In this document: positions 1,420 through 58,530 of the stretch, one piece after another | How the letters are laid out: every line of letters begins with the position of its first letter | How positions within the stretch are numbered: the first letter of the stretch is position 1 | Made by a program: the position numbers and the translations under genes | From: a virus | Taxonomy: Duplodnaviria > Caudoviricetes | Strand: one strand, 5' to 3' | Virus record (IMG/VR): IMGVR_UViG_3300015050_000977 | Span: 1 to 58,530 of that record | Length of the DNA: 58,530 nucleotides | Notes under the pieces: model-generated | Database searches by the model: none | The model's input: the letters and a program-made list of their open reading frames with translations, nothing else | Told to the model about the DNA's origin: nothing

Positions 1420-1684
1420 GTGGGCCGCGCTCTGGACGAGCAAGAACAAACTCGACGGCCTAAAGAGACATCTCATCTACGAGAACGGAGTGCCCGCGCT
1501 TTTCTCGAAGCGCCGCTTCGCCCGAAATTTCATCCGCGCTCAATACGGCTACATCGCGACGCGCGCCGATCTTCGCGCTGAACCGCATGGCTGGCGGCTA
1601 CCCGTAGCGGTCAAAGTCACGGTTACTCTTTCTTCGCCGAACCATATAATATCACATCCCCATGAGAATTCACGGCAACCTTGA
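1334..1684 (+). CDS. Cassette hypothetical protein (116 aa, MNHPLQP...)
   Basis: ATG at 1334 overlaps the upstream TGA; preferred over the track start at 1250. Confidence 0.75.
   Translation: MNHPLQPLVGKTPEQPAAGERCSVALGSAWAALWTSKNKLDGLKRHLIYENGVPALFSKRRFARNFIRAQYGYIATRADLRAEPHGWRLPVAVKVTVTLSSPNHIISHPHENSRQP
1636..1660 (-). other. attI-like simple recombination site (half-site with no partner arm)
   Basis: Minus strand reads GGGATGTGATAT-TATATG-GTTCGGC. It is AT-rich, its core matches the previous site, and I found no complementary arm downstream. Confidence 0.6.
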
Positions 1685-1979
1685 CCGAGCAATATCCAAT
1701 CTGCGTGCCGGTCGCGAAGTATCCCGCCAATGTCGCCGCGCCTTCCTCGGCCCACCGCTCCGCGCTCCAGATGCCGGGACTTTGCTCAAAACCATCCGCG
1801 TCACAGACCACGTAAAAAATATCAGCTACGCCATCACAATTCACCAAGGCAACCGCCGCAATGGCATTGAACCACGCCTGTTCGGACAATCGTTCGTCAA
1901 ATCGCGCTACTGCGGTTTTGATCTGCTGTTTCGCGAACTGCGCAAACGGTGGTCATTGCGGTGGCTGGTCCTAAACTAA
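1662..1979 (+). CDS. Hypothetical basic protein (105 aa)
   Basis: ORF directly after the array, co-directional with the operon. Confidence 0.65.
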   Translation: MRIHGNLDRAISNLRAGREVSRQCRRAFLGPPLRAPDAGTLLKTIRVTDHVKNISYAITIHQGNRRNGIEPRLFGQSFVKSRYCGFDLLFRELRKRWSLRWLVLN

Positions 1980-2096: not shown

Positions 2097-2342
2097 ATGA
2101 CCAAACCACCCATCACCGCCGCCGAACTAGACCCCGCATGGCCCGAAGCCGTGCGCTCCGCCACGCCCGCCGTCAAACTGCGCGCTGGCCACGGCCACAC
2201 GATTGAGGCGTGGTCCGAGGCGCGCAACAGGTATATGCCGCTCCAACTGCCCGGTGGCGGCATCGCGTTCACCACCGAGGCGGATCGCGACCTGGTGCTG
2301 GGGGCGATTATGGGGCTCAATATATTGCCTCCCGCTAAGTGA
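2097..2342 (+). CDS. Hypothetical protein (81 aa)
   Basis: ORF coupled (GTGA) to the helicase. Confidence 0.65.
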   Translation: MTKPPITAAELDPAWPEAVRSATPAVKLRAGHGHTIEAWSEARNRYMPLQLPGGGIAFTTEADRDLVLGAIMGLNILPPAK

Positions 2343-4072
2343 GCGCCCTCATCGACATTGACTGGGATGAGGCGCCCGTAGCGGTAGCAACGCCCCATCG
2401 CTTTGCGCTGCGCGGTAAACAGCCACAGTGGCTCGCAACGATCATCTCTGATTTTGCGACCAAATCGCGCCTACTTGTGGTAGCCCCAGGAGGCGTGGGC
2501 AAAACGACCCTCTTCGCCGCGCTCGCAGCCCACTACCACACGCTCGGCATCCGCACGCTGGTCTTGGAGAACCGCGACCGGCTCACGCGCCAGACTGCCG
2601 ACCGTATCCGCATTGAGACCGGCATCGAGGTGGACATTGAAATGGGCGACGAGCACGCCAGTCCGTTCGCGCCCATCGTGGTTGCTAGCGTGCAGACGCT
2701 GGGGCGTGTCAACCGCTTGACCGGCTTTTCGGATTCTCACTTTGGATTGATCGTCGCGGACGAATGCCACTTTTCGCTAGGGCCGCAATTCCAACGCGTC
2801 ATGTGCTATTTCCACTACGGCGCCCACAGCCTAGACCCGGACTGGAAGCGGCCCGAAGATGGCACCTACGAGGTCAAGGCTCGCTGCGCCGGATTCACAG
2901 CCACGCCAGACATCGGCGAGCGCAAGAACCTCGGTCAGTTCTTCCATCACCGCAGCGTCAATTACAGCTACCTAGAAGCCGTGCAGGACGGCTGGCTGGT
3001 CGGCCCGGTTCAGAAGAACATCCCGGTTCGCATCGACCTGTCCAAATACAAGGCCAAGTCCACACCCAACGGAAACGACTTCGCCGCGTCCGATTTGAGC
3101 GCGGCGCTCATCCCGATCATCGAGGAACTGGCCGAGCAAATCCTGATCCATGCCTCGGCCAAGAAGACCATCGCATTTCTGCCTAGCGTGGAGTGTGCCC
3201 GCATGATGACCGACGCTCTGTTGCGGCGCGGGATGCGAGCGATATTCGTGTCCGGCGAGTGTCTTGATGCGTCTGAGAAGACGGACGAGTTCGCCGCGCT
3301 CGGAGCAGGCTCGGTGTTGGTCAATTGCTGCCTCTACGTCTACGGCGTGGATTTCCCTGACGTGGACTGCATCGCGTGGTTCCGCGCTACCATTTCCAAG
3401 GCGTTCTACATCCAAGGAATCTACCGCGGCACTCGCGTATTACCCGGCATCCTGAATGGCCTAAAAACCGCAGAGGGACGTCGCGATGCCATCGCCTGCT
3501 CGCGCAAACCGTTCCTGACAATCCTTGACCCGCTGTTCGTGTCTGACCGCATTGACCTGCTAGATGCCTACGACCTGCTCACCGATGAGCCCGAGGTGAA
3601 GAAGGCCATGAAGGCGTCGGGTGAACTGAGCGTGGAGTCGGCGCAGAAGGCGGAGCGCGATTTTCTGAAGTCGCTAAAGAAGGAGGCGAAGAAGCATGAG
3701 CGGAAAGCGGCCCGCACGATTGACCCGCTCCAGTGGGCGGTATCGCTTGGCGACTCCATGATCAAGTCCTATGCGCCAACCGAGGCGTGGGAATCGCAGC
3801 CGGCGAGCGTCGGTCAACTAGACTTCATCCGCAATCAGGGCATGGAGATTGGCGGGATCACGTCGAAAGGACTGGCCTCGCGTATCATCAGCCGGCTGCG
3901 CGTGCGACAGGACAATAAATTGGCAACGCCTAAACAACTACGCCTCATGCACCAACTCGGCCTAGACGAGCAGACCTGCGCTACGCTGACCCAAGCCGAG
4001 GCCACCGCCACCATCGACCGCATCTTGCAGGGCAAGCGGGAGCGGGGTGGGCTGACGCCGGCCGTGGCGTAG
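2339..4072 (+). CDS. Superfamily 2 (DExH) DNA helicase
   Basis: Walker A PGGVGKT, DECH, FTAT, GVDFP and YIQGIYRGTR motifs. Confidence 0.92.
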   Translation: MSALIDIDWDEAPVAVATPHRFALRGKQPQWLATIISDFATKSRLLVVAPGGVGKTTLFAALAAHYHTLGIRTLVLENRDRLTRQTADRIRIETGIEVDIEMGDEHASPFAPIVVASVQTLGRVNRLTGFSDSHFGLIVADECHFSLGPQFQRVMCYFHYGAHSLDPDWKRPEDGTYEVKARCAGFTATPDIGERKNLGQFFHHRSVNYSYLEAVQDGWLVGPVQKNIPVRIDLSKYKAKSTPNGNDFAASDLSAALIPIIEELAEQILIHASAKKTIAFLPSVECARMMTDALLRRGMRAIFVSGECLDASEKTDEFAALGAGSVLVNCCLYVYGVDFPDVDCIAWFRATISKAFYIQGIYRGTRVLPGILNGLKTAEGRRDAIACSRKPFLTILDPLFVSDRIDLLDAYDLLTDEPEVKKAMKASGELSVESAQKAERDFLKSLKKEAKKHERKAARTIDPLQWAVSLGDSMIKSYAPTEAWESQPASVGQLDFIRNQGMEIGGITSKGLASRIISRLRVRQDNKLATPKQLRLMHQLGLDEQTCATLTQAEATATIDRILQGKRERGGLTPAVA

Positions 4073-4435
4073 TCACTTCAACGTCACCCGATCCAAAATC
4101 ACCTGTTGCCGGCGAATCAACTCCTGCTGATTCTCAATCATCTGCATGAGTCGGGTATCAATCTCGTCCTTCTTCGACCGCCACGTTGCGTAATCGCGCA
4201 ACACGTCCGACCTATCTTGCTTGATGGACGAAATCTCCCTTTGCGTCGTGGCGAGCGCAACGGTCGTGCTGTTGACCCAGACAGCTACGCCACCGAACGC
4301 CACGAGGCACGCCCAGAAGCCGCCCACCAATAGACGCGCCAGACCGAGCAGCGAATGCAGTCGGTCAATGTTCTTGGCCAGCTTGTCTAATTCTTCGGGA
4401 GGCATGTTGAGTAGGTAGTTATGTGCGGCCTCCAT
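4073..4435 (-). CDS. Membrane protein with coiled coil (possible lysis/holin-like)
   Basis: One transmembrane segment; located at the distal end of the late module. Confidence 0.55.
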   Translation of the reverse strand: MEAAHNYLLNMPPEELDKLAKNIDRLHSLLGLARLLVGGFWACLVAFGGVAVWVNSTTVALATTQREISSIKQDRSDVLRDYATWRSKKDEIDTRLMQMIENQQELIRRQQVILDRVTLK

Positions 4436-4516
4436 GCCGCAGATACTTAGGTATTTTTAGCTATTGGCAAAAAGGTATTTTACCCATAGTTTAAGTATTG
4501 GGCTACTGTTTAAACA

Positions 4517-5239
4517 TTAGCCGGCTCCCTTGTCGATGTCCGTCGCCATCTTGGCCGCTGTGTGAATCCGCGAGTGCAGCCACGGTGCCGTCACGCGCTC
4601 AATCGCCGAAATCGGATTCTCGCCCGCCCTGACGCCTGCCATGGCGGCACCGAGCGACGCAGGCGTAATTGAAAAGAATCTGGCATATAGCCACAGACCT
4701 CCAAGCAGCACACATACGCCGATAAGGATAGTGCTCTGGCGCTCTGATGCCAACTGCGCCGCCGCGGCCTCGGAAATAGCCACGTCAGCCGCCCTGCGTG
4801 CTGCCAGCGCCGCATCACGCTCGGTCTGCAACTGTGATGCGCGCTTGGCCTCCGCTTCGTAAAGTCGCGCCGCCTCCGTCAGCCGTCCCTCCATAACCGC
4901 CACACGCCGTTTCTCGGCCTCCAGTAGCGCCAGTGGGTCCGGCGTCGGCAACTTGGCAAGCGCGGTCGGCACCTCGCGGGCAATGAAATCCTTGGACGGG
5001 GACGCTGGCGCCATCGTGTTCGCCTCTCCGATCTTGGCGACCGATGCCGCCGCCGATGCGCCCTGCGCCGTCGTTGCCGCGTCCAGTGCGGCGGTCGCGG
5101 TTTTCGATGTCTCGGCCCGCTTGCTTGCGCCATCCAAGAACTTTGGCTTCAGCACGAACAGGCCACCGCCGATCACGGCGAGGACGATAAGGACGACGGT
5201 GAGGGCTTCAGCACGTTGGTTGGCGTTTGCGGATTTCAT
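4517..5239 (-). CDS. Membrane-anchored coiled-coil protein (possible spanin-like)
   Basis: N-terminal TM segment, Ala-rich coiled coil and a second TM segment. Confidence 0.55.
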   Translation of the reverse strand: MKSANANQRAEALTVVLIVLAVIGGGLFVLKPKFLDGASKRAETSKTATAALDAATTAQGASAAASVAKIGEANTMAPASPSKDFIAREVPTALAKLPTPDPLALLEAEKRRVAVMEGRLTEAARLYEAEAKRASQLQTERDAALAARRAADVAISEAAAAQLASERQSTILIGVCVLLGGLWLYARFFSITPASLGAAMAGVRAGENPISAIERVTAPWLHSRIHTAAKMATDIDKGAG

Positions 5240-8200
5240 TTCTTGTCGCGGCCGATCTCATTCATTATTCGCGCGTCTTGCAAGAGCAGGTAGGCGCGCT
5301 GCGGGGGTAGTTCGGCCAACCCTGCCGCAATGTCGTCACCGTTGCGGTTCAGCGCGTTCAGATAGCCGTCGTCCAGCAGCGCGGCGGAGGCTAGGTTGAA
5401 TCGCTTAGTGCGGATCATATTGATGCCTTGGCGCATCAGGCTTCCAAGCGAGCGGCCGGACTGGATGCTGCCAGATTGCCCGGTGCGCACGAACTCGGCA
5501 GCATTGACAACCTCGGGTGTCATCTTGGCCGAAATCATGGCCTCGCGGCTGGCGTCGTCCATCTTAGCCACGCCCATCGCAAACTTGCGCAACCTTTCAG
5601 CCTTTTCCGGGCCGATAGCAGCGGAGAGCTGGCTGAATCGGGTGTCCGTATCAGCGCCTGGAAGCGACTCAAAGAACGACCTTACTTTTGGCGTATCCAG
5701 ATTTACGATTTGACCCGGAACATTGCGCTCCGTGCGAATCATGCCCTGAAGTGCATTTGCAACCAACCGGCGCTCAACCATCTCAGCCAAGTCTGGCTTC
5801 TGGTCACGCAGCGCGTCCATGAACGAACGCGCCTCGGAGCGGCGCATGTTGGCTACGAGGTCCGTGACCGTGCCGGCGCCGTCGATCTTTTCGGCCTCGT
5901 TAGACAGCCGGTAGCCTCCCTTGCCTTTGAATACGCCCGTGAGCGGATTTTGCTCCGCCGCCTGCATTGCGGCCTGCGCAGCCTGAGCGTCAACGCCTGC
6001 GCGCTTGGCGAGCCCGTTGGCCTCCACGAAAGCCTCGCGAGCCTTTTGCATCAGCCCGGCCTCGCGCAGCGCCACGGCGTCATTGACGCGTTTCGTGAAC
6101 GCGACAGTGGCCATCGCTTTTGCAACCTGCGCAGGGGCGTCTTTTCCGCCCACGTTGAGCACCTGTTGAATCTGTGGCGACTCCATCACGGAGCGGATAG
6201 CGTCCGGCATCAGATCGTGCGGCTTGAACTCTTGCAGCGCCTTCGTCCAGCCCTTGATCGTGGGTGCGTCACCCATGCGGAACAGTTCGACCGGGAATGG
6301 GCTGTCTTTCTTGGCGGCGTAGCGCCCGACCAATTCACCCAGCTTGCGGTAGTCCACGCCGTAAGCATCGGTCGCTTTTTCGAGGAACGAATTGCGGACG
6401 GCGCTGCCCATGGTGGCCATGGCGGCATTCGCCACGTCCGGGTTCATCGGCTTGATCTGGTCAACGAAGGCTTTGAAGTTTTTGATTTCGTCCACATTGC
6501 CGGACGCCAACTTGTCAGCCATGCCTGCAACGGTGGAGTCGGCCACTTCGCCGCGTAGCAGCGCCCGGCCAAAGTCGGAGTCGCGCAGCTTGGACGTGTC
6601 TCTCCAGAACTGACGGAACTTCTGATACGGTTCCACCGCGTCGGGGAACAGGCGCCCGATTTCTTCAACGTGCGTGTCGGACATCGCGTGATACGTCTTG
6701 GCTGCAAGACGCTCCGCGTTGTTCATGTTGTTCGTGTCGATCTTGCCTTGGAAGCCATCGCTGATGGCGTCGCGCAGACGGCGGAAGTCATCGAGGGTTA
6801 GGAACTTTTCCTCCGGCGCGGCGACGGCCGATGCGGATTGCATAGGCTGGCCTGCTACAAGCTTACCGCCAACCGTTTTTATGCCCCCGGGGAACGCGGC
6901 ATTAAATTGAGCCGGGGTCATTTCGGTTCCGGCTAATTGCGCCTTGCGCGCCATCTGCTCCAGCGAAAGCTGCTTGGTCGCTGTTGCGTCGGCGACAGTT
7001 TTGCTTCCCCAATTCTTGATCGTCTCAAGGATGGACTTGCCTGCCACAAGCTCCGCGTCCGAGCCTAGCGCGGCCTTTGCGGCGTTGTAGAGCGCGTCCT
7101 GCCCGATGATAGCGGCATTGTCAGGAATGCCCGTAGCAGCCAGCATTTCGCCTGCCGCCTGCGACCGCGCGCCGAACAGCTTTTTGGTAATGTCCTGCAC
7201 AGCCTCCGCGTGCCCAGTCTGCGTGCCAATGGTGTCGGCGCCAACGGTCAGTGCAATACTGGCCTTGGCTTGGTCGGAGATGGCCCGCATGGTCTCGGCC
7301 TGCGCACCAGCAATAACATCGGCGCGCGTCTTAGGGTCGAGATTGGTCGCCGCCTTGGCTTTGGTCACCATCGCCTGCGCTTCCTCCATGCGCTGTGCCG
7401 CCATTTTATAGGCAGCATCAAGTTCATCCACCTTGCCAAGAATCGGCTGCAACTGCGCCGCAATCTGCTCGTTCTGCGGAGCATCGGTCGCCGTCGCAAA
7501 AATAGCCTTGGCCATCGGCGCACGAGCCGCGTCCTGTTTTGCGCGCATGGTCGGATCAATACTGACCACCTTCTGCTGCATCGCGCCGTAACGCTTCGGA
7601 AGCACGTCGCCCAGCATCGGGTCAGCCATGCCCAGTTCTTCCGCTGCCCGACGGCCCGCGTCGGCCTCAGCCTGGACCTTCTGCATGGATTGCAGCTTGC
7701 CGCCCACGCCGAGCGCGGCGGAACCAATGATCGCCGGAACGATGGCGTCCTTGAGCGAGGTTTTGTATTCGTCCCAATTGGGCGTAAGTGACTGCTCCTC
7801 GATGGATCGCTCCAGCGCATTGCCGACCGCAACGGTGGCACCGGCCGCGCCCGCGCCCTTGGCGATGTTGCCGACCGTCGATGCGCCGGGAAGCGGATTC
7901 GGCGCGCCCGAAAAGAACATCGTCTGCGCGAGCTTCGACAGCTTCGGCGTCTCGCCGTTGTTCACCGCATCCAAAAGATACGCGCCGCCGCCGACCATCG
8001 CGCGGGTCGCCATCGGGATTGCTCCAAAGCCAGGGACGGCCATCGGTGACGCGGCCATGCCGACGCGCCCCATCGTGACCATTTGCTTGTCGAGGCGATT
8101 AGCCATCTCGTCGGGCGTCCCAAATGGGCTCTTGAAAGCGGGTGGCGCATCTGAGCGCTGAACACTGGCAAGTGATGCGGAAGGGTCATGCGCGGGAGCC

Positions 8201-53781: not shown

Positions 53782-55005
53782 ATGATCCCCACGATCCGCG
53801 CATCATCGCTCGATAGGGTGCTCTCCTGCCCCGGCTCACTCACCGTCAATGCCATCGTCGCACCCCGCGACGGTGACGACGGCGAAGAAGGCACGGCGCT
53901 ACACCACCTGTCAGCCGCCCGCATCAAAGCCGAGATGGGCGCCATTGGCGAAATCGGTCCGCAGCCTCCGGGCCAATATCCTCACTCAACCTGGATTAGT
54001 GACTACTACGTGCGCCACGTCATGGAGTCTACCCCAGCCAGTTACAGCCTAGAGTGTGAGGCGGCGCTGGCCTACTTCTTTGAACCCGAAGAACCGCGCG
54101 TTATCACGCAGGTCATGTGGGAGGACGGTCGCCCCGTGCTGCGCCAGGTGCCTTACAACGGCTTCATCCTCTCCGGCCACATTGACTGCCTCGCCCTGTC
54201 ACCGGACGCCACACACGCCATCGGCTGGGACTTGAAGACCGGCTACGACCCCGTGGACTGCGCCGATAGCAACTGGCAAATCCTCGGTTACTGCGTGCTG
54301 CTGAAGCGGGCCTACCCCACGTTGCAGTCGGTCACGTTCTACATCGTGCAGCCGCGTAACGATGAGGACGGCGACGCCGTAAACGAAGGCCATCCGCGCG
54401 TATCCTGCGTCACGATCACCGACCTTGACGCCGCGGTTGCCACGCTAGCAGTCCGCATTGCCGACGCCATTTCAAGGCCCCTCGAACTCAACACCACCAT
54501 CAAAGGCTGCAAATTCTGCGTGGGCTGCTCGTGCCCCGCGATTCGCGCCAAACAAAAACTTATGAGACTAACCATGACAGAGGAATCGCTGGCCTCGCTT
54601 AAGGCCCAGCCGGACGACGCCACGCTGGCGGAGTTCATTATCGGTGCCAAGGAACTGGCCAAGCCAACCGAGGACGCCAAGGCTATGCTGAACGACCGGC
54701 TGGATCGTAACCCGCAACTGGTGGCCGCAGACGGCACCGTGATCACGCGGGTGACTCAACGAGGCGCATGGAGCGTAAACGACCCGCAGGCGTTCTTCCG
54801 CGCCATGCGCGAACTGCTTCCGGCCGACGAACAGATTGCCCGCGTCACGAAGCCGAGCATGACGGCACTCAAGGATGAGATTGCCACGAGCATGAAGGTG
54901 CCGAAGACGAGCAAGGCAGGTGTCAGCGCCGCCAGCATTTTCGACAGCACGTTTGCGCCGCTGGCCACGCAAGGGGAACGGAAAATGATTCAATTTTCGC
55001 AATGA
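53782..55005 (+). CDS. PD-(D/E)XK exonuclease (Cas4/DUF2800-like)
   Basis: CPGS, EGTALH, GHID, DLKTG, QILGY and CKFC motifs. Confidence 0.85.
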   Translation: MIPTIRASSLDRVLSCPGSLTVNAIVAPRDGDDGEEGTALHHLSAARIKAEMGAIGEIGPQPPGQYPHSTWISDYYVRHVMESTPASYSLECEAALAYFFEPEEPRVITQVMWEDGRPVLRQVPYNGFILSGHIDCLALSPDATHAIGWDLKTGYDPVDCADSNWQILGYCVLLKRAYPTLQSVTFYIVQPRNDEDGDAVNEGHPRVSCVTITDLDAAVATLAVRIADAISRPLELNTTIKGCKFCVGCSCPAIRAKQKLMRLTMTEESLASLKAQPDDATLAEFIIGAKELAKPTEDAKAMLNDRLDRNPQLVAADGTVITRVTQRGAWSVNDPQAFFRAMRELLPADEQIARVTKPSMTALKDEIATSMKVPKTSKAGVSAASIFDSTFAPLATQGERKMIQFSQ

Positions 55006-55164
55006 CCAACCACCAACTCCTCACCATCGTTATCGTCGCAATTTGGCTGTGCTCAACGATTGGCGCGTGCGTCACAAAGCGCGCTGAAATATACCAAGCT
55101 CCGGCCATCCTCACTGTGCTCATATGCATCGGCTACTTTTTAATCAAAACAAGAGGCTAATCCC

Positions 55165-55635
55165 ATGCCCCGCTACACCACCGAGAGAGAATTGGCCATC
55201 GCACGCCGTAGCATGGGCGAGCCCAACGTCGTGATCCCGCCCGCGCCAAAGAAGCGCAAGAACGAGGAAAGCGCCGCCCAGTGCGAAGTCATCAAGTGGT
55301 GGGCGACTGCGTGCAAGGCTTATGACATTCCTGAAATTCTGCTGTTCAGCATCCCGAACGGAGGCCGGCGCGATCCACTGGCCATGATTTTTCTCAAACG
55401 AGAGGGGCTGCGCAATGGCGTTCCCGATTTGTTTCTGAGCGTCCCGCGCGGACACTGGCATGGTCTTTACGTCGAAATGAAGACAGCGACGGGACGCGTC
55501 AGGGATGAGCAGCATGAATTTATTGAGTCTGCGCGCGTGAATAACTACGTCGCATTTGTGTGCCGCAGCGCAGAGGACGCGAAGGCCATTATTGAACGGT
55601 ATCTAACTAATCCAAGCCAACTGCATTCGGCCTAA
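55165..55635 (+). CDS. VRR-NUC domain nuclease
   Basis: IPNGG, GVPDL and YVEMK motifs. Confidence 0.9.
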   Translation: MPRYTTERELAIARRSMGEPNVVIPPAPKKRKNEESAAQCEVIKWWATACKAYDIPEILLFSIPNGGRRDPLAMIFLKREGLRNGVPDLFLSVPRGHWHGLYVEMKTATGRVRDEQHEFIESARVNNYVAFVCRSAEDAKAIIERYLTNPSQLHSA

Positions 55636-55729
55636 CATCAAGACCCGACAACCCAGCCCCGAATACTACGGCGGTCACTTCAAGCCCTGCCAAATCTGCG
55701 GGGATAGCGGCTGGATAGAGGCTCAACCT

Positions 55730-56089
55730 ATGAACCCGAAAAAGACCGAAACGCTCACCCTCGCCGACGCAATGGATGCGCTCGCACGCGACATCCAATC
55801 TGGCGACGGGATCGCCAACGCAGCTATCGCGGAAGCGGCCGACCGCCTGCGCGAAACGCTAAAGGAAAACAATCGCCTCGACGGACTAATGGCGCAGCGT
55901 GACGAGCGAATCGTTGCGCTCCTACAAGAAGTGGACGAGCGCCGCCGCGACGCACAGAAAGACGCGGCGCTCGTGGGGCGGCTTCGCCGGGCGCTGGCAG
56001 ATGCGATAACCACCTACGACCCGACGCGGAAAGAGACTCTCGTGACTGCCGAGCGGCAAGAAGCGTGGGCCGCGGCATTGGCGTCATGA
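55730..56089 (+). CDS. Hypothetical coiled-coil protein
   Basis: Last fixed gene before the array. Confidence 0.7.
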   Translation: MNPKKTETLTLADAMDALARDIQSGDGIANAAIAEAADRLRETLKENNRLDGLMAQRDERIVALLQEVDERRRDAQKDAALVGRLRRALADAITTYDPTRKETLVTAERQEAWAAALAS

Positions 56090-56133
56090 CTTCGCCCAAC
56101 ATACCGGTGAGCAACACCGACACGAACACCTAA
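56086..56133 (+). CDS. Leader mini-ORF MTSPNIPVSNTDTNT crossing the first crossover
   Basis: ATG overlaps the upstream TGA; reads the core AAC as Asn, like every cassette gene. Confidence 0.5.
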   Translation: MTSPNIPVSNTDTNT

Positions 56134-56223
56134 AAACTTTACGACCATGACAAAACATAATCCTACTCAAAACATCCGCCGAAGCCTGAAGCTGTCGGTG
56201 TTGGCTCTAGTGGCTGGTTCGGC
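56094..56223 (-). repeat. attC-like site (GCCCAAC...GTTCGGC)
   Basis: Stem CAACACCGACA/TGTCGGTGTTG. Confidence 0.85.
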
Positions 56224-56431
56224 TCCGTTCTTGCTGTGCTCAAGCTACCGCACGAAGGCCGGCCAGTGGGTCCGCATCGTCGATGAATCCACGCTCAAAG
56301 GCTACGAATGCGTGAAGGGCGACGACGGAATCTGGCGCTACAACCGCGAGAGCGACCGAGGACGAGTGACCGGCTCAGCCTTCGACATGAGCGACCCCAG
56401 AAATCTTCTGCCGAACGCCCGAGGTGACTGA
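56147..56431 (+). CDS. Cassette hypothetical protein (94 aa)
   Basis: Starts in the attC loop; contains YRTKAG..VRIV...GRVTG. Confidence 0.7.
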   Translation: MTKHNPTQNIRRSLKLSVLALVAGSAPFLLCSSYRTKAGQWVRIVDESTLKGYECVKGDDGIWRYNRESDRGRVTGSAFDMSDPRNLLPNARGD

Positions 56432-56604
56432 CCAACGCCCCGCGAGCGCAGATCAACCCAACCAACTCTAGCCATGCTCTCCGATACTCTCGCAAAAGGA
56501 ATCGCTCAACCGCCGGACGTGCGGACCAAAGACGGTGCGCGCGTAGATGGCACTCACGAACAACAGCCCCGTGCAGGGGCGTTGGGTCTAGCGACTGGTT
56601 CTCC
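56410..56604 (-). repeat. attC-like site (GCCGAAC...GTTCTCC)
   Basis: Stem ACCAACGCCCC/GGGGCGTTGGGT; TGAC duplication in the left arm. Confidence 0.8.
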
Positions 56605-56612
56605 CTCTTTTT

Positions 56613-56858
56613 ATGACGATCAAACAACTCAAGGCGACAATCGCCAACATGCCCGACGAATGGCCGGTATACTTCCGGCGGATCGCGCCGCTCTGCGGCA
56701 ACGTGGAAGAAGCCGGAACGATCAACGCCGACAAATACAGCTCTTTTGGGACGCTCTATCCATGCGCCATCATCGAACCCGTGAAGGACGATGAGGAGAA
56801 CACCCACGCTGAGACAGGACCACGGCAGGACGCGGCACCGAAACGCCCTATCGCGTGA
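56613..56858 (+). CDS. Cassette hypothetical protein (81 aa, MTIKQLK...MPD)
   Basis: Typical phage MT.xxL...LPD start; stops in the next attC loop. Confidence 0.7.
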   Translation: MTIKQLKATIANMPDEWPVYFRRIAPLCGNVEEAGTINADKYSSFGTLYPCAIIEPVKDDEENTHAETGPRQDAAPKRPIA

Positions 56859-56892
56859 AGCCGTGGGCCTTGTCTCTGGCAAATGGTTAGGC
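56795..56892 (-). repeat. attC-like site (GGAGAAC...GTTAGGC)
   Basis: Arms GAGACAGGACCACGGC / GCCGTGGGCCTTGTCTC. Confidence 0.85.
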
Positions 56893-56902
56893 TCTTCTTA
56901 AA

Positions 56903-57142
56903 ATGCAAAATATACCTTACGACGACTGGCGCTCCAAAGCCGCCCGCGAAATTGCAGACGCTCTCCGCGAAGAAAACCAGCGCGTGGCCTACTATGCGTC
57001 TGGGCAGGGCGACGGCTGGGCGCGCTCCTACGGTGCAGGCAACTTCAGGAGCCCCGACTACGCCTCGATAATCGACCGGCACTATCAGGCTTCGCTCGCC
57101 AAGCCTAACGCGGAGATGAGGGACGAGCCCGAACGTAAATAA
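56903..57142 (+). CDS. Cassette hypothetical protein (79 aa)
   Basis: Ends KPNAEMRDEPERK inside the next attC. Confidence 0.65.
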   Translation: MQNIPYDDWRSKAAREIADALREENQRVAYYASGQGDGWARSYGAGNFRSPDYASIIDRHYQASLAKPNAEMRDEPERK

Positions 57143-57290
57143 ACAACATGGATACACCCACAAAAGACCTCGCCGCTGCTCAAGTGCGCGGCCACGACAC
57201 CGGCCCCGTTGGCGCTCATGCGTCGAGCGCACTCCCTCCGTCCGAATCGCAGGGCCAGTCGGCTCGTTCCTCTCGGGCGACTGGTTCTCT
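57103..57290 (-). repeat. attC-like site (GCCTAAC...GTTCTCT)
   Basis: Arms GAGGGACGAGCC / GGCTCGTTCCTC. Confidence 0.8.
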
Positions 57291-57447
57291 TCCGGGGTGG
57301 GCCGTCGATACTCTAGCGGAAAGCTGGCACGTCTCCGCAATCTTCGACGGAAATAAACACGTCCGCGCGACACTCGACCGATGCCTCAAAGAACTGCGAG
57401 CGGCGCAGGCCCGTGCGAATAAGCGCCAGCCTGAAGAGAACGACTGA
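57148..57447 (+). CDS. Cassette hypothetical protein (99 aa)
   Basis: Starts in the attC loop. Confidence 0.65.
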   Translation: MDTPTKDLAAAQVRGHDTGPVGAHASSALPPSESQGQSARSSRATGSLPGWAVDTLAESWHVSAIFDGNKHVRATLDRCLKELRAAQARANKRQPEEND

Positions 57448-57628
57448 GATGTGCCACGAGCCCGCTGAACGGAGAAAAACAATATGCAAATCAGAACGAA
57501 ACTTGGACTAGTAGATATACCGAACGAAGTCATCATGGCTGCCGCGCGGGACATAGCGGGGAGCGCAGACAGCACTCCCGAAATCGCGGCCCCATCGGGC
57601 TCGTTGTGCACTGGCGATTTGGTTCACC
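57435..57628 (-). repeat. attC-like site (AGAGAAC...GTTCACC)
   Basis: Arms GTGCCACGAGCCCG / CGGGCTCGTTGTGCAC. Confidence 0.85.
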
Positions 57629-58005
57629 GTCTGGGGGAAATCGCTGCCGCTGCGCCATTCGGTGATGCGGAATGGAATCGGACGCTCCAAGACGCGACAA
57701 TGGCGCTGCGCGAAATAGAGGAGGGCGCGAGCGACATGCACGAAGCACACGACAATCTCGCGCTCCTGCTGCGTCGCGCGGCGCGCAAGATAGACCCGCG
57801 CGACCCGCTGCGGACTGAGTGCGTGGCCTACCTCAAGCGCATCGGGCAGGCGGGAAATCCACTGCGCGGCGTGACTGCCGCACAAGATGCGGAGCCGCTC
57901 CCGGCTTCAGACCTCACCGACATGCGCGAAGCCGGAGTTTTATCTTCGGTGAACGTCCCTGATGAGCCGACGCGCGGAGCGTCGGACAAACTGAATACAA
58001 AATGA
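57484..58005 (+). CDS. Cassette hypothetical helical protein (173 aa)
   Basis: Starts in the attC loop; ATGA-coupled to the next gene. Confidence 0.7.
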   Translation: MQIRTKLGLVDIPNEVIMAAARDIAGSADSTPEIAAPSGSLCTGDLVHRLGEIAAAAPFGDAEWNRTLQDATMALREIEEGASDMHEAHDNLALLLRRAARKIDPRDPLRTECVAYLKRIGQAGNPLRGVTAAQDAEPLPASDLTDMREAGVLSSVNVPDEPTRGASDKLNTK

Positions 58006-58080
58006 AAAAGACACGAGCGGAGAAGGCACTCCCGAAAAACAGCCCCCGTAAGCGCGTTGGCTCTGGCAGGCTGGTTCGGC
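57948..58080 (-). repeat. attC-like site (GGTGAAC...GTTCGGC)
   Basis: Stem GAGCCGACGCGC / GCGCGTTGGCTC. Confidence 0.88.
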
Positions 58081-58310
58081 CTCTGGGGCTCTGGGCGGTG
58101 ATAATCTACACGCCCCAGACAGAGTGGATAAACCACTGGACGATAGCACGAACACGCACCGAAGCGCGTAAGCTATACTTTTCGCTTTGGACTGAGGCAA
58201 AACACCCCAAGAGGCACATTCGCAACGGCAGCGCCGCCCTTGTTCGGGTGACGCTTTCTTTGGCCGGGCCGAACCGGCGCATATCAGCCGCGCCCGTCGA
58301 ACTCCTCTAA
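58002..58310 (+). CDS. Cassette hypothetical basic protein (102 aa)
   Basis: Starts in one attC loop and stops in the next. Confidence 0.7.
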   Translation: MKKTRAEKALPKNSPRKRVGSGRLVRPLGLWAVIIYTPQTEWINHWTIARTRTEARKLYFSLWTEAKHPKRHIRNGSAALVRVTLSLAGPNRRISAAPVELL

Positions 58311-58399
58311 ATCCTCTCCATGAAAACCAAACTCAAGAAAACCCCGAAACGTAAGCCAGCCGGACAGACAAGGGCGTTGGCTGTGGATGCTGGTTCGCA
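58268..58399 (-). repeat. attC-like site (GCCGAAC...GTTCGCA)
   Basis: Arms CAGCCGCGCCC / GGGCGTTGGCTG. Confidence 0.8.
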
Positions 58400-58530
58400 A
58401 TCCGATTCTTCAATGCTCGACTTCATCGAGGCAAACGAAGCGTGGATTACATACGCCAGCGACCACGCCAAAACGGACAGGGCGTGGCGATGCCAAGTCG
58501 CCGAGCGGCGATTCCCGTCGCCGGACATTC
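58320..58530 (+). CDS. 5' part of the origin-spanning cassette gene
   Basis: ATG at 58320 is in frame with ORF 6..254. Confidence 0.75.
   Translation, partial: MKTKLKKTPKRKPAGQTRALAVDAGSQSDSSMLDFIEANEAWITYASDHAKTDRAWRCQVAERRFPSPDI
58408..58530. repeat. Terminal direct repeat, copy 2
   Basis: Identical to bases 1-123. Confidence 0.95.

Follow-up and report, generated by a model that had tools for sequence, protein, structure and literature searches.

The window analyzed here, 58,530 nt of DNA that make up the whole of IMG/VR record IMGVR_UViG_3300015050_000977, is a complete virus genome (58.5 kb; CheckV completeness 100%), and the element under study is an array of 11 small gene cassettes with sites that resemble the attC recombination sites of integrons. 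The record carries a 123-nt direct terminal repeat (58408-58530 = 1-123), corresponding to a circular length of 58,407 nt, and the full array extends from 56097, over this repeat, to 1642. The repeat looks like a circular-assembly overlap rather than a packaging terminus; it falls within the unique body of the seventh cassette. The genome was found to encode an SU10-type major capsid protein, a large terminase, a DnaB-type helicase, RecT, an RNase_T exonuclease, a DUF2800 protein, a VRR-NUC nuclease, a ResIII/DEAD helicase, and a C5 methylase. The array sits inside the early/replication operon of this tailed-phage genome, on the same strand as both flanks. The genes for RecT, the RNase_T-type exonuclease, and the DUF2800 protein lie just 5' of it, the adjoining upstream flank (55165-56089, plus strand) comprises the VRR-NUC gene (55165-55635) and an open reading frame (ORF) at 55730-56089, and the downstream flank (2339-4072, plus strand) holds the ResIII/DEAD helicase.

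Architecture and folding of the attC-like sites

The array comprises exactly 11 whole units of the form C...GAA, running from cccAA/C (56098-56100) to GAA/C (1639-1642), where the slash marks the crossover point considered. These cassettes measure 308-513 bp and hold 11 complete attC-like sites in one orientation, whose left cores start 288-512 nt apart. Read on the plus strand, a site opens with xxxGAAC; some 10 nt further on comes an L'' box (consensus AGCCAACGCG), which a variable loop separates from an L' box (GCGTTGGCT), and another 10 nt or so lead to GTTCyyy. The sites are structured imperfect palindromes of 92-189 nt, and the AAC and GTT triplets are present in 11/11. An imperfect palindrome with R''/L'' and L'/R' boxes, conserved in structure over sequence, is the form by which attC sites are recognized, and canonical attC sites and the Vibrio repeats (VCRs) share with the window both this R''-L''...L'-R' layout and the conserved AAC and GTT. 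The attC core consensus is RYYYAAC and GTTRRRY; the triplets of the window fit it, and the full core consensus does not.

The inner arms of the sites co-vary. The mean duplex energy of single-stranded DNA was -19.8 for a site's own arms and -13.1 ± 3.1 between sites, and a site's own right arm ranked first among the 11 in seven sites, second in two, and third in two; the predicted duplexes contain bulges. The expectation of an earlier, sequence-only reading of this DNA that hairpins would improve upon in-silico circularization of each unit was borne out, the summed minimum free energy of the 10 internal sites as single-stranded DNA going from -283.8 to -319.8 or -320.2 kcal/mol depending on the core. 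Because the folding gain is equal for left-core and right-core closure, the cut core cannot be told from folding.

Hairpins of this kind might instead be repetitive extragenic palindromic (REP) or miniature inverted-repeat transposable element (MITE)-like sequences, IS200/IS605-type insertion sequences moved in single-stranded form by an HUH (Y1) transposase, or intrinsic terminators, since imperfect palindromes recur between the genes, and single-stranded hairpins with short adjacent guide-like sequences resemble such mobile systems. The sequence-only reading had argued against simple terminators and REP elements, and the results support it: terminator-like structures were not enriched (6 vs. 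4.8 ± 2.2 expected; 0 vs. 3.2 ± 1.8), nor were promoter-like sites, and no T tracts were found 3' of the stems. Moreover, coding sequence runs into the sites in one constant frame, and the recombinase found beside this site family is, as described below, an integron integrase. We consider explanations of this class extremely unlikely.

A search of the window with Rfam at gathering thresholds, a collection of which the attC covariance model of IntegronFinder is not part, gave no matches. No long exact repeats were found among the sites; exact repeats are very short, so that repeat-driven misassembly of the array is unlikely.

Two further observations concern site structure. Several attC loops contain a third conserved box, GCACTCCCGAAA and variants of it, 25-30 nt 5' of L' (57561-57583, 58015-58037, 56539-56561, and also near 372-383), with no obvious pairing partner. 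A minimal site was seen in viral contig L076 (reverse strand, 1297-1350), which spans only 52 nt from GAAC to GTTC, carries the stop codon of the previous ORF in its 4-nt hairpin loop, and has an ATG in the right spacer.

Complementary cores and the genes they enclose

As the sequence-only reading had claimed, the right core of each site was found to be the exact reverse complement of the left core of the next site in 11/11 pairs, over 7 to 13 nt. The interval given by that reading, 56217-58399, takes in units 1-7 only, as the array continues across the terminal repeat of the record and units 7-11 are found at 1-1642. To score the complementarity, the perfect run was counted inward from the fourth base of GTTN. 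The summed run was 58 for the cassettes' own two ends and 18 for the two cores within the 10 internal sites (1, 0, 0, 1, 1, 2, 2, 2, 4, and 5), and in 200,000 random re-pairings the value of 58 was never reached, the maximum being 56. The accompanying claim that cores within a site usually mismatch has its exceptions in the last two sites, which match internally because both belong to the GGC group. GTTCGGC is common to five cassettes (1, 6, 9, 10, and 11); by row, a core's own partner was the strict best in 8/11, tied in one, and one base short of another GGC-type partner in two.

Site 0, the first of the array (cAAC ... GTTC, 124 nt; 56097-56220, plus strand), starts 8 nt past the stop of the upstream phage ORF. 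The cassettes that follow, all on the plus strand, are delimited from AA/C to AA/C. Cassette 1 (56100-56415, 316 nt; ORF 56147-56431) bears GTTCGGC at 56217 and its partner GCCGAAC at 56410. In cassette 2 (56416-56800, 385 nt; attC 56413-56601, 189 nt), whose ORF (56613-56858) begins past the right core, GTTCTCC at 56598 pairs with GGAGAAC at 56795. Cassettes 3 (56801-57108, 308 nt; attC 56798-56889, 92 nt; ORF 56903-57142) and 4 (57109-57440, 332 nt; attC 57106-57287; ORF 57148-57447) match GTTAGGCT at 56886 with AGCCTAAC at 57102 and GTTCTCTTC at 57284 with GAAGAGAAC at 57433, respectively. The cores of cassette 5 (57441-57953, 513 nt; attC 57438-57625; ORF 57484-58005, 173 aa) are GTTCACCG at 57622 and CGGTGAAC at 57947, and those of cassette 6 (57954-58273, 320 nt; attC 57951-58077; ORF 58002-58310) are GTTCGGCC at 58074 and GGCCGAAC at 58267. 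Cassette 7 is split by the record ends (58274-58530 and 1-214; attC 58271-58396; ORF from 58320 to 254), with GTTCGCAA at 58393 and TTGCGAAC at 208. In cassette 8 (215-615, 401 nt; attC 212-399; ORF 257-655) the 13-nt core GTTCGAGTCAGGC at 396 pairs with GCCTGACTCGAAC at 604, and in cassette 9 (616-947, 332 nt; attC 613-793; ORF 652-984) GTTCGGCT at 790 pairs with AGCCGAAC at 941. Cassette 10 (948-1309, 362 nt; attC 945-1046; ORF 981-1337) again has GTTCGGC, at 1043, and GCCGAAC, at 1304, and cassette 11 (1310-1641, 332 nt; attC 1307-1416; ORF 1334-1684) has GTTCGGCG at 1413 and CGCCGAAC at 1635. The array ends in GAAC/catataat at 1639-1642, with no L box beyond. Past this end lie two overlapping candidate ORFs, both devoid of a Pfam match, at 1662-1979 (plus strand) and 1623-1889 (minus strand), the latter overlapping the last core of the array.

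Complementarity between the two ends of a cassette, core against inverse core, is textbook integron biology. The cores might otherwise act in RNA, closing a long-range stem around each gene body of a polycistronic transcript for processing, stability, or translational control, with the likeness to attC being incidental. Such stems would fit the co-orientation of all units in one operon, the enclosure of coding bodies, and the observation that both strands fold about equally well. A stem of 7-9 bp around a loop of about 150-330 nt is weak, however, no Rfam family was matched, and neither the movement of whole units with breakpoints at AAC nor the adjacency to integrase and attI described below would be explained; we therefore hold this explanation to be very unlikely and continue with cassette integration as the preferred reading.

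The reading frames bear on the junctions between cassettes. The plus-strand frame that holds AAC in frame gave the best codon score in 11/11 cassette bodies; AAC stands at codon position 1, encoding Asn, in all 11, and GTT at positions 2, 1, and 3 in five, three, and one cassettes. Among 46 motif-defined units (10 from the window and the rest from eight other loci), the longest open frame had AAC in frame in 32, and most of the remaining 14 stop at the TAA within a TAAC core. In nine of the 11 cassettes of the window, the only long open frame starts right past the previous stop, within the attC loop (in four of the nine, start and preceding stop codon overlap), and the next attC supplies each ORF with its tail and stop codon. 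Ribosomes that had to cross the junction would require such a uniform AAC frame, and we infer that leaders and tails are translated.

The cargo itself was searched with 10 of the 11 cassette proteins, cassette 7 being excluded as it spans the record end. None gave a Pfam match above cut-off, and in PHROGs only the cassette 1 protein matched, weakly, to phrog_9244 (unknown function). The cassette 8 protein has a homologue, at 49-57% identity, among the cassette proteins of the integrase-bearing viral contig L035. By eye, the ORFs of cassettes 6 (58002-58310) and 11 (1334-1684) have similar C-terminal stretches ahead of the Asn codon and look like distant paralogues.

Integron integrases beside related arrays and the position of the crossover

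Related arrays were sought in viral contigs by a scan for the right-half motif of the sites, which returned 104 stretches (80 listed), most of them chance matches. Only arrays with cross-cassette complements were counted, the loose motif pattern matching unrelated loci by chance. Among the stretches listed, arrays of the window's site family were found in contigs L035, L076, and L058, and contigs L069, L009, L099, L012, and L070 were recognized afterwards as holding such arrays. Cross-cassette complementarity was again seen in 9/9 motif matches of L035, 6/6 of L076 (one pair being only 6 nt long), and 3/5 of L058. In 80 bacterial intI loci, the exact right-half motif was not enriched.

The L035 array abuts a 324-aa integron integrase (NCBIfam TIGR02249, 282.2 bits; cut-off 265), and L009 and L099 encode relatives of this IntI with 47% and 37% identity. 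In all three contigs the array ends in xxxAAC, followed after 30-50 nt by the start of intI on the same strand. A profile of the three integrases recovered 28 viral intI loci, and the xxxAAC junction was recognized by eye in 17 of them; most loci of the clade of about 48% integrase identity have motif-defined cassettes of the window's family upstream. The L009 record encodes a terminase like that of the window and the L191 record an HK97 capsid protein and a terminase, so that at least some of the integrase-bearing contigs are real phages. The SU10 capsid family had no match in five integrase-bearing records, and the controls were without a match as well, so that this negative carries no information.

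In genomes, the nearest integrases were found in metagenome-assembled genomes (MAGs) of Verrucomicrobiota, at 47-54% identity; these suggest the host phylum, and the host of the window phage is probably a member of Verrucomicrobiota. An integron of a Terrimicrobiaceae MAG (L112) has the same type of site, its ORFs lying on the strand opposite intI, in the canonical gene direction.

The window itself contains no detectable integrase. The tyrosine recombinase family PF00589 had no match in the whole 58.5-kb record, in contrast to 14/14 control genomes, and tblastn with the L035 IntI left the window without a match. Comparison of 54000-58407 with 50,697 GenBank phage records by blastn gave zero matches. 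Close relatives of the flanking helicase were sought in viral contigs and none was confirmed, so that comparison with a kindred phage whose array differs or is empty was not possible, and no empty site was found. With regard to L012, its array lies at about 2600-4950 on the reverse strand, with ORFs that start 14-25 nt past GTTA behind T-rich leaders; about 0.8 kb past this array (5784-6089) stands only the C-terminal third of a tyrosine recombinase, and L012 also has a weak homologue of the window ORF at 2097-2342.

Three kinds of junction bear on the position of the crossover. The attI junctions of the relatives fall at AAC, as described above. In L035, a 368-nt cassette is duplicated with 100% identity, from the AAC of the preceding left core to its own GAAC, and the second copy is the attI-proximal cassette, as expected from excision and re-insertion. 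In metagenomes, single cassettes of the window occurred in other contexts in contigs of four runs from four studies, and breaks at left-core (G)AAC were located at 56798, 57110, 57438/9/41, and 57954/6; the sequence-only reading thereby passed the test it had set itself, on whether the boundaries of homologous cassettes fall at AA/C. A 1588-nt contig of run X5 carries 56798-57110 with no differences and with both flanks unlike the window. Cassette 5 was found in runs X3 (57438-57956) and X5 (57441-57954) with 15 differences and other flanks, and a contig of run X1 departs from the window directly after 57441. At least three different upstream contexts converge at 56798, several upstream sequences converge at 57438/9, and several downstream sequences diverge at 57954/6. 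Among the 24 listed of 75 loose contig ends, 10 lay within 2 nt of a left core, seven near a right core, and seven elsewhere. No run contained more than 21% of the sampled words of 55700-58530. As for excised alleles, a single joint skipping 549 nt (56888 to 57438; one contig, with a 31-nt side) was found, which is too weak to call.

Cassette 5 gave additional observations. Over 57335-58009, the summed contig depth reached about 108 in one activated-sludge run in which the phage backbone had none, implying that this cassette is carried by other, more abundant replicons. Its leader of about 45 aa, encoded in the attC loop (57484-57625), shows conservative-looking substitutions across unrelated bodies (proteins P0011-P0017), and its body was also found with other N-terminal halves.

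The attI junctions, the L035 duplicate, the whole-unit array, the metagenome breakpoints, and the uniform AAC frame agree, and on this ground the crossover was assigned to the left core. The G/TT crossover proposed by the sequence-only reading accordingly stands for the left core, AA/C on the gene strand being G/TT on the minus strand; it does not stand for G/TT in the right core. With the crossover in the left core, attC travels with the downstream ORF. A crossover in the right core on the gene strand, which is what a literal canonical reading calls for, was also considered but discarded. In that case cassette 11 would have no site and the left half of site 0 would be orphaned, and such a crossover misfits the attI junctions, the L035 duplicate, and the X5 and X3 pieces.

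Small genes of T4-type phages are shuffled by promoter/stem-loop cassettes, and the sites of the window could likewise be hot spots for homologous or single-strand-annealing exchange by the phage RecT and exonuclease, with no part for an integron integrase. The RecT, RNase_T-type exonuclease, and DUF2800 genes just upstream of the array, the lack of a detected integrase in the genome, and shared pieces that are attC-only modules breaking at both cores would all suit such exchange. Yet it explains neither the cassette-specific exact complements of up to 13 nt nor breakpoints confined to the 3-4 nt of AAC, the exact repeats among the sites are very short, and related contigs have these sites right beside integron integrases, the attI junction falling at AAC. 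On balance, we judge exchange of this type improbable and integration by an integron integrase the better account.

Integrase-bearing relatives also set the direction of the genes. The cassette genes of the window lie on the AA/C strand, which in the relatives is the intI-sense strand, and thus point to attI and intI. Inspection covered 16 of the 28 viral intI loci; a scoring upstream ORF was present in 14, and in 14/14 coding was mainly on the intI strand. Among 13 of the 80 bacterial loci, picked for long upstream flanks, coding was mainly on the opposite strand in 10, on the same strand in two, and even in one. In a canonical cassette the ORF precedes attC and is transcribed away from attI and intI; here, by contrast, the ORFs are on the intI-sense strand with attC 5' of the ORF, and the mobile unit is attC plus the downstream ORF.

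A probable integron-type array with inverted cassettes

With 11 clustered attC-like sites and no integron integrase found in the record, the locus has the composition of a CALIN, a cluster of attC sites without an integrase. The complete set of intI, attI, and array is present in L035 and absent from the window. We place at about 0.85 the probability that the array is an integron-type CALIN derived from circular cassettes with paired attC, inserted at the left-core AA/C by IntI. The circular origin, already advanced by the sequence-only reading, was strengthened by the integrase adjacency, the L035 duplicate, the AAC breakpoints in four runs, and the lack of terminator enrichment; use of the sites by an integrase, with crossover in the triplet, is hinted at indirectly by the AAC junctions at attI of the relatives, the duplicate, and the breakpoints.

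In the proposed mechanism, each cassette would once have been a circle whose two ends closed a fully paired R box, and an integron integrase from the host or a related phage would have inserted this circle by a single-strand crossover in the AAC of a left core. After insertion, the variable part of the left core would be that of the upstream cassette and the variable part of the right core that of the downstream cassette; with the core parts split in this way between neighbors, cores would pair across cassettes and not within sites. The folded and cleaved strand would be the gene-sense strand, so that the cassette would read attC and then ORF, with genes running towards attI and intI. At the junction, each ORF would read AAC in frame as Asn or, in relatives, stop at the TAA of a TAAC core, and the attC of the next cassette would give a short tail, a stop codon, and often the next start codon.

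Several points weigh against this interpretation. The fourth base of the right core is C in 10/11 sites and A in one, where the canonical core has GTTR; sites of 92-189 nt exceed most attC sites, and the box-to-core spacers of about 10 nt are longer than canonical ones. These features, together with an ORF in frame across the crossover, set the array apart from canonical cassettes. The coding signal of the leaders is weak (per-codon log-odds of -0.10 to +0.12), and the likeness in site orientation to the bacterial integron L112 is only modest. The phage backbone was absent in all four runs, leaving the array-backbone junctions without independent support. Some likenesses end at the right core: 78 nt from the attC of cassette 6 (58002-58079) share 93.6% identity with L069:10316-10393, the likeness ending at GGTT, some contigs match only 56098-56219 (as in run X2, where the match begins at the AAC of site 0) or 56803-56882 and then pass into other bodies, and L076 and L099 hold homologous cassettes with different upstream sites. 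Attachment site and body are therefore not always co-inherited, and occasional recombination at the right core may take place. Finally, no integrase was found in the genome, and the array may be a frozen relic; that an integrase acts on the array of the window phage is inferred.

The leader of cassette 5 is fused to at least seven unrelated bodies among metagenome proteins. We read such shared leaders and attC parts as one attC family on many ORFs, as in sedentary chromosomal integrons with homogeneous attC families such as the VCRs, where near-identical attC parts likewise stand on unrelated ORFs.

Main-text passages of a survey of sequenced phage isolates report integrons or their components in 21 phages, including 17 CALINs with at least two attC sites each, and attC sites usable by IntI1, a bacterial integron integrase (PMC9892861). 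As described there, these CALINs resemble the window in being attC clusters without integrase, in virulent and temperate phages, and their cargo includes DNA methyltransferases; those passages mention neither ORFs that are inverted relative to attC or read through the crossover, nor an intI clade among uncultivated phages. Full-text searching of the literature, supplementary files excluded, found no paper on Verrucomicrobiota phage integrons or on the inverted read-through build. Phage CALINs are already in print, and what differs here is the build.

The atypical integrons of Treponema, in the parts of PMC3607928 that describe their layout, have intI and the cassette genes on the same strand, as here. 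In Treponema, however, transcription of intI runs towards attI, with the cassettes downstream of intI, whereas here the cassettes lie upstream, their transcription runs towards attI, and that of intI leads away from it. According to the start of the abstract of bioRxiv 10.1101/2022.09.11.507474, in which phage genomes do not figure, the integrase can insert cassettes outside att sites; such insertion would explain an array from cccAA/C to GAA/C in a backbone without attI and intI.

A broader proposal, which we put forward tentatively and rate somewhat short of an even chance, is that the array represents a phage-adapted integron, with attC 5' of each gene, a loop encoding a reusable N-terminal leader, a first arm that gives the gene upstream its C-terminal tail and stop codon, and a universal AAC Asn codon. 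Any cassette could then be fitted into an operon whose genes are co-directional and translated. One clade of uncultivated phages, whose hosts are probably Verrucomicrobiota, would have an IntI of its own, and phages of the window type, with the array alone, would depend on IntI provided in trans. Most of the cargo would serve counter-defense; in relatives, the attI-adjacent cassettes encode DNA-modification functions, namely an N6/N4 DNA methylase (L099) and a Mom-family protein (L009).

Integrons are chiefly known from bacteria, as platforms for gene capture, and only a small number from phages have been published; starting from the window array, we arrived at no fewer than 17 viral contigs that combine an integron integrase of their own with sites of this family. 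If the inverted, read-through build is true, integron chemistry has found another use in which the recombinogenic strand carries the gene, an attC site can itself be coding, and such cassettes may be wrongly delimited by software that looks for attC behind its ORF. Phages would then be able to swap small accessory genes, plausibly for counter-defense, with one another and with the integrons of their hosts.

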